This document shows positions 1-7,745 of a stretch of 64,000 nucleotides of DNA, piece after piece. Position 1 is the first letter of the stretch. Each line of letters starts with the position of its first letter. This DNA is from a virus. A model generated the notes under the pieces. The model saw only the letters and a list, made by a program, of their open reading frames with translations. It did not search any database and was not told where the DNA came from. The position numbers and the translations under genes are program-made. Location: positions 64,001 through 128,000 of IMG/VR virus record IMGVR_UViG_3300005673_000003. One strand, given 5' to 3'.

Positions 1-1355
1 TTGCTACGCAATAGAGCGCGGGCTTCTTTGTTCATCGGGACTTGCCTCGGAGAGGGTAGACTTGCGCCTGCCTCCCTTTGGTCTTACAGTCCCTCCCAAA
101 GCAGAAGCCCCACTTCCTGAGGCCAAAATCCGCAAGCCTTCATTTCTGATATTGATCGCCGCATTGATGTCCCTATCATGCCGTTCTTGGCAGTGAGGAC
201 AGACAAACGATCGGACTGAGAGATCCATTTTCTCTAGCGTCAACAGTGTGTTTGAGCACAGATGGGAAGACGGGAAGAATCGCCCAATCTCCAGATACAC
301 CTTGCCTTCAAACTCCGCCTTGTATTTGAGCATGGTACAGAACTGTCCCCAACCGACATCGCTTATTGCCCTGGCTAGGTTGTGGTTCTTGACCATGTTC
401 TTAACCGCTAGATCTTCCACCACAATTACTTGGTTTTCGTTGACTATCTTGCGGGATAGCTTGTGATGAAAGTCTTCTCTTACTCGTGCAATCTTGCTAT
501 GCACTTTGGCAACTTTTAACCGCGCCTTGTTGCGATTCTTGCTGCCTTTTTCCCGTCTAGACAGCTTACGCTGCTTCCGTTTTAGGTTGCGTTCATGCTT
601 TTTGAGGTGGCGAGGGTTTGCGAACTTTGAGCCGTCAGAAGTAATAGCAAAGTCTGTCAATCCCAAATCGATCCCAATTGCCTTTCCCTCGCTGGAAGAT
701 TCAGGCTTTTCTATGCCGTCATCGACCAGTAGAGAAGCGAAGTATTTCCCGTCTGGGTTCCTGGACACCGTGACAGTTTTTATAGTCCCCTCAATAGGTC
801 TGTGAATCTTGGCTGTAACTGTTCCCAGCAAACCAGGAAACTTGATTGCAGACTCAGAAATTACTTTGACGTTTTGAGGAAACTGAACCGACTGTCTATA
901 GTGTTTCGATTTGAAGTTGGGATACTTTGCTCTGCCCTCAAAGAAGTTTTGGAACGCTTGAGATAGATTCAAAACTGATTGCTGCAAGCATTGAGAATAA
1001 CACTCTTTCAGCCATTCATGCTCCGCTTTCAGGATGGGAATCTGTTTCTTCATATTGAAAGCAGAGATTCCCTTGCCTGTCGTCTTGTACGTTTCCGTCA
1101 TGACAGACAAGCAATGATTCCACAGCCATCGAGTACAACCAAAATGCTTGGCTAGCGTGATGGACTGCTCATCGGTGGGATAAATTCTGACCTTGACTGC
1201 TTTCAACATGTCTCTATATTAGCATAAACCCAGCATTGCGATAAAGGCTTATCTGTCACGATTCCTAGATAGTTTGTTCCTTCGCTTCGCTCAGTCACGC
1301 GGCTCTCATCCCGACGCTGACCGTTCCGGTACAGCGCGGGGCTTCCCGCCTAGTA
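1..1355 (-). mobile_element. Non-autonomous IS605/IS1341-like element (tnpB only); right end runs off the window
   Basis: tnpB plus GC-rich hairpin-like left end at about 1290-1352; no tnpA; boundary approximate. Confidence 0.75.
4..1209 (-). CDS. tnpB: IS200/IS605-family RNA-guided endonuclease TnpB
   Basis: N-terminal KVRIYPT HTH, RuvC-I IGIDLG, RuvC-II VVEDL, zinc finger CPHC, RuvC-III DRDINAA. Confidence 0.95.
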   Translation of the reverse strand: MLKAVKVRIYPTDEQSITLAKHFGCTRWLWNHCLSVMTETYKTTGKGISAFNMKKQIPILKAEHEWLKECYSQCLQQSVLNLSQAFQNFFEGRAKYPNFKSKHYRQSVQFPQNVKVISESAIKFPGLLGTVTAKIHRPIEGTIKTVTVSRNPDGKYFASLLVDDGIEKPESSSEGKAIGIDLGLTDFAITSDGSKFANPRHLKKHERNLKRKQRKLSRREKGSKNRNKARLKVAKVHSKIARVREDFHHKLSRKIVNENQVIVVEDLAVKNMVKNHNLARAISDVGWGQFCTMLKYKAEFEGKVYLEIGRFFPSSHLCSNTLLTLEKMDLSVRSFVCPHCQERHDRDINAAINIRNEGLRILASGSGASALGGTVRPKGGRRKSTLSEASPDEQRSPRSIA

Positions 1356-1356
1356 G

Positions 1357-1755
1357 CTAACGAGATTGAGCAGGGTAACTAGAGGAGGTTATGGGAGCTT
1401 CAGAAGATTGCGACTTAGCGGGAGGCGGGAACAGCAGCAAGAAAATAATGATTGCCGCCAGTCCGCCGCTGAAAACTTTCGACCAAAAGAAGTGAGAATC
1501 AAAAGCTCGATTGAGATTGATAATTTGAATTTGCAAGTCGTTTGCCCGAGCTTGCAGCTCATCATTTTTCATTTTTTGAGCTTCCAGAAACTTCCGAAAA
1601 TCAACGGCTGGCACAAATAAACTTGAGTTATTCGGAGGAGTCCGAGGGGGGTTAGCAGGGTTAGCAGACTGTTCGTAAGCTTGAGCGATCGCGTTTTTAG
1701 TTGCGTCCATTTGAATTACTTCCTTAATACTTTTTTGGTTTTCTACCTGAATCAA
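1357..1755 (-). CDS. Hypothetical coiled-coil membrane-anchored protein
   Basis: ORF with C-terminal hydrophobic helix GGLAAIIIFLLLF; start uncertain. Confidence 0.5.
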   Translation of the reverse strand: MIQVENQKSIKEVIQMDATKNAIAQAYEQSANPANPPRTPPNNSSLFVPAVDFRKFLEAQKMKNDELQARANDLQIQIINLNRAFDSHFFWSKVFSGGLAAIIIFLLLFPPPAKSQSSEAPITSSSYPAQSR

Positions 1756-1763
1756 TCCGTCGC

Positions 1764-2057
1764 TTAATCCAATCCGAGAGCAATACTGGGAACGCGAACA
1801 CCCTTTTGTTCAGCCAGGGATTGACAAGCTCTTGCACCGAAATAGCATTGCATTGAGCCGAAAACATCCTGACCGCCATCCTTGAATACTTCAGCAAAAG
1901 TCATTGCCATCATTGCGTAGGCTCTGCCGCTCAAATTCAAGGCTGCTAAAGTCGCCTTAAATTGCTCTAATTCCTCTGCGCGGGTCTGCAAAACCTCATT
2001 GACTTCGTTCTGGGTAATAGTGTTAGCGATCGCTTGCTCTTGCCGTCCGATAGCCAT
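1764..2057 (-). CDS. Hypothetical early protein
   Basis: RBS AAGGAAGG, leader motif and promoter at 2124-2168 upstream. Confidence 0.65.
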   Translation of the reverse strand: MAIGRQEQAIANTITQNEVNEVLQTRAEELEQFKATLAALNLSGRAYAMMAMTFAEVFKDGGQDVFGSMQCYFGARACQSLAEQKGVRVPSIALGLD

Positions 2058-2123
2058 ATTGATTGCCTTCCTTTATCGATTGATTACTACTTGAAAAAAG
2101 GAGCCGAATTGCTCGACTCCTTA

Positions 2124-2168
2124 ACTGTAAGCGCTATTCAAGAAAATGTCAACATCTATCAATCTTTT
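2124..2168 (-). promoter_or_regulatory. Conserved sigma70-type early promoter, copy 1
   Basis: AAAAGATTGATAGATG-TTGACA-17 nt-TACAGT. Confidence 0.8.
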
Positions 2169-2183
2169 GCTGATTAAGTGCCT

Positions 2184-2357
2184 CTATTGAGCTTCTGGCG
2201 GTTGCTCCGGCGGTTGCTCTGATTCTGATTTTTGAGCATTTTGGGAATATCCCAGTAGTTGCCGCTGCTGTTCCATGAGCTGCCTTGCTGCCGTCTGGTC
2301 TTGAGCGGAGCTATTAAAGCGGATAGAAACGGTTCTGCCTCTACGAGATACTTTCAT
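2184..2357 (-). CDS. Small hypothetical protein (57 aa, MKVSRRGRTV...EQPPEQPPEAQ); below the ORF-track cutoff
   Basis: Translated by hand; GGAG RBS supplied by the IS right end. Confidence 0.6.
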   Translation of the reverse strand: MKVSRRGRTVSIRFNSSAQDQTAARQLMEQQRQLLGYSQNAQKSESEQPPEQPPEAQ

Positions 2358-2418
2358 CAAAAATTCTCCGGGACACCCCCATCCTCGCGCAGCAGGTGGG
2401 GGAGGGATAGGAGCGTCA

Positions 2419-3582
2419 TTAAGCGGGGTTCGATGCCCCGTTTAATGACAAGTATTGTGGGCGAGTGACCAGTAACCCCGTTGCGCGGTGGAGTAACTGC
2501 ACTTTAGAAGCCGTAAACTGCCCGATACGCTTCCAATTGAAATCAGACACAGAGACTTGCCGTTCTGTATCTCCACTCACCCACCCGACACTAACCCTGC
2601 CTGCCATTTCCGCTCGTACTAAATCACCCTTCCTGAATCCATGTCGGGTGGTGGTGCCGCCATATTTGCGGCGGACTCCACCCTTTGCCGGAACCATCAG
2701 GTGCAATTGTCTGCGGGAAATGGGCGGGCGGCGAATCACCACAAAGGGGGCGGTTGTGACTCGCACGTCGCCAACCCAATGATGACCACGGGTATTGGCA
2801 GTGTGAAATGATGTATAGCGAACAAACTGACTACAAGCCAGGGCAATCCCGTCAACAGCATGAGTTTCAGGCTTGGCATCACCCTTGCTAGTTTTTTGCT
2901 TTTCCAGATTCAGGTGATTTCTGAGACTGGCAGTTTCCCACCCGTAGAGAGTGGAGGCTGGAGCCAAAGTTGCTAATTGCTCTAGCATCCATTTTTGCCC
3001 CACCATGACCGCACTGAATCCTTTCCCGGAACGGGCGGCTTTGCGGCCAGATGTGAGGTCTACATCGGCCTTAACGTACTCAAAAACAATTTGGCTAATC
3101 GGGAAAACACGACACAATTCTTGTACCGTGCGATATTCCAATTGTCGATTGCTTTTGATGCTGGGCGGGACACCCTTCTGCCGACGATTACTAAATCGCT
3201 TTTGCCGATGAGCGCGTTGATTAAAGGGAAGTTTGCGGTTAATCCGCCTGCCTCTACGTCCACGTCGCATCAGTTTTTGATTGGCTTTGTGTTCCTTTAC
3301 TGTGTCAAATGGCAACAGCAGATGTGCCATGAACAGAGTCGCTTTGGCTGATTGCACAGCAATCCCGCTGTAATGCTTGCCTGGGTCAATGCCAACCACA
3401 ATGGGCTGAGTTTCCTTACCAGAAGGTTCGGCAATCAATTGGACGCAATAGATACCTATGTCATTAAAAAACTCCTTGGCTTTGCCTGTTTTGACCCAAC
3501 GTTTTGCTCTGCTTGCCTTCGTTGGCATCAGGACTTGTCCATCGGGTGCTAGTACGGGAACTCGAACTTGTTGGTTTTCCAT
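2419..3582 (-). CDS. isrB: IsrB RNA-guided nickase (PLMP + RRXRR + split RuvC, no HNH)
   Basis: VLMPTK PLMP motif, VGIDPG Ruv[10 protein letters not shown] bridge helix, FEYV, HAVDG; no HNH/zinc motif. Confidence 0.85.
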
Positions 3583-3803
3583 GAGAGAGATAATCCCTTA
3601 CGGTTGTTTGCCCCTTTGACCACGCAAATCACAAATGTCTTGCCCTTACGCCCGACTGAGTAAACAGTCTTACAACTAGCCCGGATTCGGGGGGTGTCCG
3701 GTAGTGTATGTCGTGATTGCGCTCTTTGGCCTATTCAACGCTTACGGTGTGGGTCTTACTCCCCTCACTCCCCCACCTCGCCTAAGCAGGTGGGGTTGTT
3801 GAA
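3583..3803 (-). ncRNA. Putative omegaRNA scaffold of isrB
   Basis: About 220-nt structured noncoding region between the left end and the isrB start, the known position of IscB/IsrB omegaRNAs. Confidence 0.7.
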
Positions 3804-4357
3804 ACTTTTCTCCTGTTACGATTACGATTGCGTTTACCGCCCTCCGTAGCCCGATTGTTCATCCAGCGAATGAATTGCTGAGGATTTCCGTAGGTCAGCC
3901 GATTGCGGCCATTTCCAGCCAGCCTCCAACCGCCTTTGGTGGGATACAGATCAACTCGAAGACCTTTGTAATTGATGATGAGGTGCGCTCCGTTATTTTT
4001 GGAGACGTAGCCGATACTAGCGGCTTTCAAAGCGTTTACGAATACCTCATTCCTGGATTCCCTATTGAGCTTCACATCGGCATCATGGGCACGCCAGTAC
4101 TCCGAGCTACCAGGCTCCAGAAGCTCTATTGGGGGAGAAGTATTGGGGAATAAAATTTCGTTGACCGAAATCTCATCCTTCATGCTCTGGTAGGCTTCTA
4201 GCGCTTTATCCTTATTGGTGTAAGCCAGCTCATCGAGCGGTAGAGTATGCCCTGGAATGTGAATAGTGATGAGCCAGAACCCATCCTCCGGTTGGAGCAA
4301 GATCACCCGATAGCGGCCTGCAGCACGCTCCCTGACTGGCTGAATTGCAACTACCAT
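3782..4357 (-). CDS. Hypothetical protein; last codons (STTPPA*) supplied by the IS left end
   Basis: RBS GGAGAGGGAG and leader motif upstream. Confidence 0.65.
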   Translation of the reverse strand: MVVAIQPVRERAAGRYRVILLQPEDGFWLITIHIPGHTLPLDELAYTNKDKALEAYQSMKDEISVNEILFPNTSPPIELLEPGSSEYWRAHDADVKLNRESRNEVFVNALKAASIGYVSKNNGAHLIINYKGLRVDLYPTKGGWRLAGNGRNRLTYGNPQQFIRWMNNRATEGGKRNRNRNRRKVSTTPPA

Positions 4358-7698: not shown

Positions 7699-7745
7699 AT
7701 TGTAATTAAAAAGATTGATAAATGTCAACATCTATCAATCTTTTT
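7699..7745 (-). promoter_or_regulatory. Early promoter copy 2 with palindromic operator
   Basis: TTGACA-18 nt-TACAAT; AAAAGATTGATA/TATCAATCTTTT inverted repeat flanks the -35 box. Confidence 0.8.

Follow-up and report, generated by a model that had tools for sequence, protein, structure and literature searches.

Among the systems described so far, ISC1-1_MA of Microcystis aeruginosa NIES-843 inserts at the target N/ATGA (a slash marks a junction throughout), as proven on empty sites, and it has paired subterminal hairpins and no target duplication (Kapitonov, Makarova and Koonin 2016, PMC4810608). It is established that TnpA carries out single-strand insertion beside a 4-nt target (PMC4810608) and that IsrB nicks under the direction of an RNA whose guide, the 5′ flank, sits just 5′ of the omegaRNA scaffold (Hirano et al. 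2022, PMC9581776). The target-adjacent motif (TAM) is NTGA/TTGA for DtIsrB, the IsrB of Desulfovirgula thermocuniculi, in which R323 and Q326 read G3 and A4 of the motif, and NTG for the Crocosphaera and Dolichospermum enzymes; IsrB genes in cyanophages, such as K2IsrB, are already known (PMC9581776). For the IscB elements of Geobacillus stearothermophilus, the text available of a preprint reports co-orientation with the upstream gene and re-cutting of the excised donor joint by the nuclease (Meers et al. 2023, bioRxiv 10.1101/2023.03.14.532601). Start codons, ribosome-binding sites and gene junctions have 0 occurrences in PMC4810608, and in the literature that could be searched we found no mention of start codons or ribosome-binding sites in the context of IsrB elements.

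Here we analysed a 64,000-nucleotide stretch of viral DNA (the window), comprising bases 64001-128000 of the 148.7-kb virus record IMGVR_UViG_3300005673_000003, which has direct terminal repeats. A co-oriented gene block on its minus strand (4357..1357) consists, in order, of a 191-aa open reading frame (ORF), a 387-aa ORF, a 57-aa ORF and two more small ORFs, with a TnpB gene lying separately just past the block (Table 1). A first-pass annotation of this DNA had placed an IsrB element at 2358-3803, and this proved exact: both ends agree with those of 41 relatives, with covariation in the omegaRNA and with the empty site of one relative, L025. Judged by its sequence, the element is an intact, ISC1-type member of the IS200/IS605 superfamily that carries the RNA-guided nickase IsrB, nicking being predicted by homology. 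It is present as a single copy. No Y1 transposase (TnpA) was found across the 148.7-kb phage, so the element is non-autonomous.

Table 1. Features of the IsrB element and its neighbours (positions in the window)
Feature	Position	Strand	Basis or remark
TnpB gene, intact, 401 aa	4..1209	-	HTH_OrfB_IS605, OrfB_IS605 and Cas12f1-like TNB domains
Downstream putative 57-aa ORF (ORFan)	2184..2357	-	ORF list and homology searches
ATGA: TnpA target, IsrB TAM, start of 57-aa ORF and predicted former TGA stop of the upstream gene	2354..2357	-	Junction sequence, relatives, L025 empty site, target and TAM from the literature
Whole IsrB/omegaRNA element, 1,446 bp	2358..3803	-	Ends set by 41 relatives and the L025 empty site
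Element-borne GGAG	2366..2369	-	8 nt before the ATG (2357..2355) of the 57-aa ORF
Subterminal hairpin, isrB-distal end (transposon left end)	2373..2401	-	Direct repeat D1
Strong hairpin spanning the isrB stop codon, no T run	2415..2449	-	Inverted repeat I3, 14-nt arms, 93% complementary
isrB gene, 387 aa, intact	2419..3582	-	Pfam RRXRR PF14239, E 4e-44; DtIsrB 8DMB, E 4e-51
omegaRNA scaffold, 221 nt, first base of element to isrB start codon	3583..3803	-	Alignment A1, RNAalifold
Subterminal hairpin, omegaRNA end (right end in the TnpA convention)	3767..3795	-	Direct repeat D1 with 2373-2401, 72% identical
New TAG stop of upstream gene, supplied by the element	3782..3784	-	Junction sequence, ORF list; in loop of end hairpin
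Upstream 191-aa ORF	3782..4357	-	ORF list; native form predicted 184 aa, ending RRKV
Predicted 20-nt guide AATCGTAACAGGAGAAAAGT (length inferred)	3804..3823	-	5′ flank, the last codons of the upstream gene
Displaced native AGGAG	3810..3814	-	6 nt before the ATG in joined flanks

The 387-aa protein is assigned by homology to IsrB, the HNH-less form of IscB and an OMEGA nickase, with nickase activity predicted. Its only Pfam match is RRXRR (PF14239), covering residues 8-181, and no HNH domain was detected in it. A single collinear alignment joins residues 5-370 to DtIsrB (8DMB); in this alignment the RuvC catalytic residues D/E/H-D are conserved, with GIDPG, FEYV and ETHAVD aligned, as is the TAM-reading motif KRIGQF with its Arg and Gln. 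We collected relatives by scanning, at the protein level, one genome for each prokaryotic species, which yielded 57 loci, all of them cyanobacterial or from the sister lineage. The best full-length relatives found have 66% protein identity. At the DNA level the closest relatives are four decayed remnants that retain the 3′ end (L055-L058), from the filamentous cyanobacterium ESFC-1 and Jaaginema. Each of the four remnants still borders immediately on the start codon of a host gene, in one case that of a pfkB-family kinase and in another that of a lipoprotein-type cyclophilin. The ESFC-1 copies likewise have the hairpin that spans the isrB stop codon. These relatives hint at the host lineage of the phage.

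The 221-nt region before isrB aligns with the same region of 31 relatives (32 sequences in all), and this alignment yields a shared fold of 44 pairs, with compensatory changes at 38 of them. No Rfam family matched, HEARO (RF02033) included, when the window was searched at the gathering threshold and positions 2200-4000 at E values up to 10. The omegaRNA has its homologues in the RNAs that precede cyanobacterial IsrB genes but lies outside the reach of the Rfam model. Inside the omegaRNA, the T or G of alignment column 1 covaries with the A or C of column 86, which indicates that the RNA includes the T at 3803, the first base of the element. A segment at the other end of the element, the GGAG-bearing GGGGGTGTCCCGGAG (2366-2380), is 87% complementary over 15 nt (I2) to an omegaRNA stem segment 1.3 kb upstream (3690-3704). 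By our estimate such complementarity is at about chance level in 1.5 kb; if formed, the pairing could hide the ribosome-binding site in transcripts that read through the element.

The ends of the relatives, taken from a position-restricted and partly hand-curated table, follow one pattern. In 41 independent relatives a variable base precedes the element, which begins TTCA (or GTCA) and ends N/ATGA followed by unrelated sequence, so that the insertion target N/ATGA holds for 41 of 41 relatives and for the window copy. On the minus strand the 5′ junction of the window copy reads AGGAGAAAAGT/TTCAACAACCCC, the element starting at 3803, and the 3′ junction reads CCCGGAGAATTTTTG/ATGAAAG, the element ending at 2358. 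Similar hairpins lie near both ends in direct orientation, a hallmark of the IS200/IS605 superfamily; there are no inverted termini and no target duplication (the flanks are GT and ATGA). One relative, L025 of Nodularia chucula, provided an empty site. Its joined flanks match nine related genomes gaplessly, with 79-93% identity over about 299 nt, and eight of the nine read ATGA at the junction, for example ...ATTAGATAC/ATGAGCCGC; L073, the most divergent-looking of the nine, has an indel there. The empty site is a native ATGA stop/start overlap, in which the TGA of the upstream gene lies over the start of cobA. The common ends of the relatives, the covariation and this empty site together define the window element as 3803..2358, 1,446 bp long.

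A different 5′ boundary would change the reading of the phage locus. If the GT before TTCA were part of the element, the boundary would be two bases out, the flanks would join in frame (AAA/ATG AAA) and a single gene of about 240 aa would have been split at an internal Met-Lys, with ...AGGAGAAAAGTATGAAAG as the predicted empty allele. A 5′-GT does belong to ISC1-1_MA as published (Kapitonov et al., PMC4810608), and L002 likewise has GT before TTCA. In alignment, however, the GTCA of ISC1-1_MA matches TTCA and not GT plus TTCA, the base before TTCA is A, C, G or T even between near-identical relatives, and both the covariation of column 1 and the L025 empty site place the boundary at TTCA. The upstream protein bears on the question as well. 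An exhaustive HMMER search placed its C-terminal half (residues about 85-170) in a family of uncharacterized proteins, mostly of about 90-100 aa, that share a motif of roughly VD(F/Y)(W/Y)P..GKW...G....F..W and for which Pfam has no family; most of the aligned distant homologues terminate shortly past the shared domain, a pattern more in keeping with two separate genes than with a single gene split by the element. We rejected the in-frame fusion because of the way the family aligns, the covariation and the empty site of L025, and regard it as highly improbable.

With the boundary at TTCA, the predicted empty-site junction of the phage would be ...AACAGGAGAAAAGTATGAAAGTATC, that is, ...AAAAGT/ATGAAAG (in the longer form, ...AGGAGAAAAGT/ATGAAAG). 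Read in codons, the flanks joined in silico give ...AAC AGG AGA AAA GT/A TGA AAG. This is the junction given in the first-pass annotation, which took AGGAG as the ribosome-binding site, and the motif does stand 6 nt before the ATG. In this well-supported reconstruction, the upstream gene would have ended RRKV-TGA before insertion, its TGA overlapping the ATG of the 57-aa ORF. With the element in place, the upstream frame reads GTT TCA ACA ACC CCA CCT GCT TAG, keeping the Val and gaining six residues (...RRKV-STTPPA-TAG), and GGAG precedes the ATG of the 57-aa ORF. Both the stop seven codons in and the new GGAG had been pointed out before and are there in the sequence. A weak terminator-like site (a 5-bp stem and a T run, 2381..2369) at the element end could lower read-through.

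The same boundaries locate the guide and the TAM, at the positions given for the guide (about 3804-3823) and the ATGA (2357..2354) in the first-pass annotation, and the Arg and Gln that read the TAM are conserved. In the occupied allele TTCA takes the place of an NTGA TAM after the predicted guide, and the element-bearing copy should consequently be spared.

We searched for the empty allele of the phage itself. Pattern scans that allowed 0-4 bases between the flanks found the predicted junction absent from IMG/VR and JGI metagenome contigs, and neither the 191-aa protein nor the 1070-aa neighbour protein identified a related phage in IMG/VR. All three metagenome observations (the record of the window, JGI 3300053491 and JGI 3300005689) carry the insertion, and the two other contigs are identical to the window over the common stretch, with 0 mismatches. 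An empty allele in relatives was thus found for L025 but not for the phage in the collections searched, which makes the stop/start overlap a reconstruction and not an observation.

It is also conceivable, but in our judgement unlikely, that the element landed on a tolerated ATGA in the short stretch behind the upstream gene, that the 57-aa ORF is no real gene and nothing is repaired, and that the overlap and both ribosome-binding motifs are coincidence. The 57-aa product has no homologue but itself among 5.8 billion proteins, and in the homologue search aimed at the empty allele the 191-aa protein matched only its own sequence; with both neighbours being ORFans, the 57-aa ORF is best called a putative gene. 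Relatives do occupy non-genic ATGA sites (10 of 36 by the ORF rule described below), and a stop is met within about 20 codons in any sequence. Against coincidence stand the AGGAG 6 nt before the ATG in the joined flanks, the position of the 57-aa ORF, which takes up most of the gap to the gene that follows, within a co-oriented block of tightly packed genes, and is also called by the JGI pipeline, and the placement of most relatives, and of the element in Microcystis phage Ma-LMM01, on real start codons.

To quantify this placement we used two tests. In the loose test, an ORF of 80 codons or more begins at the junction ATG in 28 of 41 ATGA-ended copies (the window's included), compared with 15% of 679 control ATGA sites taken from the same flanks. 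In the strict test, which used rebuilt empty sites, a junction ATG counted only if its ORF had no earlier start codon and ran to 100 codons or more; this held for 17 of the 36 relatives with both ends (a rule that undercounts, several ‘intragenic’ copies having profile-confirmed N-termini) versus 2.2% of 818 control ATGA sites (P about 4e-19). Ten of the 36 lie at ATGA sites that the ORF rule classes as non-genic. Among non-disruptive sites only, non-genic and start together, 17 of 27 are starts versus 8.7% of controls (P about 3e-12). The excess at start codons is therefore about 20-fold relative to ATGA sites in general and about 7-fold relative to mere avoidance of gene disruption. Profile matches confirm the junction ATG as the N-terminus of galK, dapB, trxA, cobA and a response regulator, the NCBIfam profiles beginning at residues 1-12. 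No start-codon placement is seen in ten sister elements whose target is TTGA. One TTGA-target element, in a Microcoleus metagenome-assembled genome (L021:2349-2380), lies inside an apparent TnpB gene (LKRVDFAFTRFFQGLGGYPKFKPARH...) and looks like one OMEGA element within another.

These counts divide the proposal, made in the first-pass annotation, that TAM choice steers such elements into coupled gene junctions, where their ends repair both neighbours. The enrichment at start codons stands in both tests, but coupled junctions are not favoured: ATGA stop/start overlaps make up 2 of 36 sites (the window and L025) versus 3.7% of control ATGA sites. Nor do the ends look like a general adaptation. 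A GGAG-bearing end occurs in just 9 of 42 elements, namely the window copy, L006, L016, L035, L036 and L055-L058, with the others ending in a T-rich tract; it is a trait of a sub-lineage, not of IsrB elements generally. The early stop needs no special explanation, random sequence stopping about as soon.

Whether the start-codon bias reflects survivorship only has to be weighed here. TnpA may hit any ATGA, with insertions inside genes being lost, so that neither steering by the TAM nor adapted ends would be required. We regard this as possible though not probable. It is consistent with the small share of GGAG-bearing ends, with the 10 of 36 copies at non-genic sites and with a target of just four bases. 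However, the share of starts among non-disruptive sites exceeds what avoiding gene disruption alone predicts, and the co-orientation of IscB elements with their upstream gene, reported in the preprint by Meers et al., fits a need for read-in transcription.

Taken together, the evidence makes it probable, in our view, that a host TnpA put the ISC1-type IsrB element into the phage 5′ of an ATGA, most likely a start/stop overlap, in such a way that reading of both neighbours continues, the guide comes from read-in and the element can home. In this sequence of events, a Y1 TnpA of the host would insert the element into single-stranded phage DNA directly 5′ of the ATGA, which most likely both started the 57-aa ORF and, in its TGA, ended the 184-aa gene upstream. 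The upstream gene would then read six codons into the end hairpin and stop at TAG, and the downstream ORF would retain its own ATG, now behind the GGAG of the element. Since the guide lies outside the element, a guide-bearing omegaRNA requires transcription that enters from upstream; it would probably be made by read-in transcription from upstream phage genes, all genes here being co-oriented. Ahead of the 1070-aa gene there is a promoter-like site (7728..7699); such sites are no commoner than chance. IsrB with its omegaRNA would nick phage copies in which the site is uninterrupted, having the guide match and ATGA, and would spare the occupied site. Such nicking would favour retention of the element after excision and its copying into element-free co-infecting genomes.

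The phage holds four OMEGA-type genes and zero TnpA. Its sole TnpB gene (1209..4) lies on the same strand as the IsrB element, about 1 kb downstream. There are two further RRXRR genes, at G000:C1:19844-20305 (L063) and 128203-128724 (L061), the latter about 200 nt past the end of the window. One is a 358-aa, IsrB-like gene whose element end reads ...CCGGAGACTCA/ATGAGC, with an ATG that opens only 8 codons; the other is a 452-aa open frame with an end near GTGA.

We tentatively suggest a broader reading, which may well prove too strong: ATGA-targeting IsrB elements could be specialized start-codon parkers, with a target and TAM that coincide with ATG plus A. They would settle in the transcribed leader of a co-oriented gene or at its operon junction, where read-in transcription of the guide is guaranteed, and their last 20-30 nt, GGAG in one sub-lineage and a T-rich unstructured tract in others, would keep the downstream gene translated. 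ATGA overlaps would offer a safe harbour in packed phage genomes, and RNA-guided nicking would spread the element among co-infecting phages. The start-codon bias suggests why guide RNAs that start outside the transposon can be expressed at all, and the phage copy illustrates how such elements may persist in gene-dense genomes without polar damage. The latter bears on a possible role of OMEGA nucleases as gene drives between phages that infect together.

Compared with known systems, the element is closest in kind to ISC1-1_MA, which is likewise non-autonomous, encodes only an HNH-less IscB (IscB1, now IsrB), and shares the subterminal hairpins and the lack of target duplication (PMC4810608). 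Kinship was judged from the published termini and not from sequence comparison: the 5′ terminus GTCA of ISC1-1_MA is homologous to TTCA, and its 3′ terminus is ...CG (PMC4810608). ISC1-1_MA resides in a Microcystis genome, whereas the window copy is in a phage. The DtIsrB-omegaRNA complex (8DMB) has the same protein architecture, KRIGQF, and a guide 5′ of a long structured RNA, but that work did not analyse natural target context (PMC9581776). The IscB and TnpB systems of G. stearothermophilus differ in cutting both strands and in having other TAMs, and start-codon placement is not reported in the text available (bioRxiv 10.1101/2023.03.14.532601). In Microcystis phage Ma-LMM01 (NC_008562), the 3′ boundary of the IsrB element with the RRXRR gene gp171, ...TTTTTTCG/ATGA, coincides exactly with the annotated start of gp170, a small gene, and the stop of the upstream gene lies 1 nt before the element; unlike in the window, that gene retains its own TAG and there is no GGAG at the 3′ end. 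The 5′ end of the Ma-LMM01 element (L076:997-1090) has the terminal GTC(A/G)CTAACCCC hairpin segment in three incomplete tandem copies, apparently left by several rounds of insertion or excision at the same place. The N/ATGA target (Kapitonov 2016) and the NTG/NTGA TAM (Hirano 2022) are already published, and a start-codon bias follows naturally from the target. The element itself is ordinary; more notable is the quantified start-codon bias of its ATGA-target relatives, which we found mentioned nowhere in the literature that could be searched and which is absent in their TTGA-target sisters.
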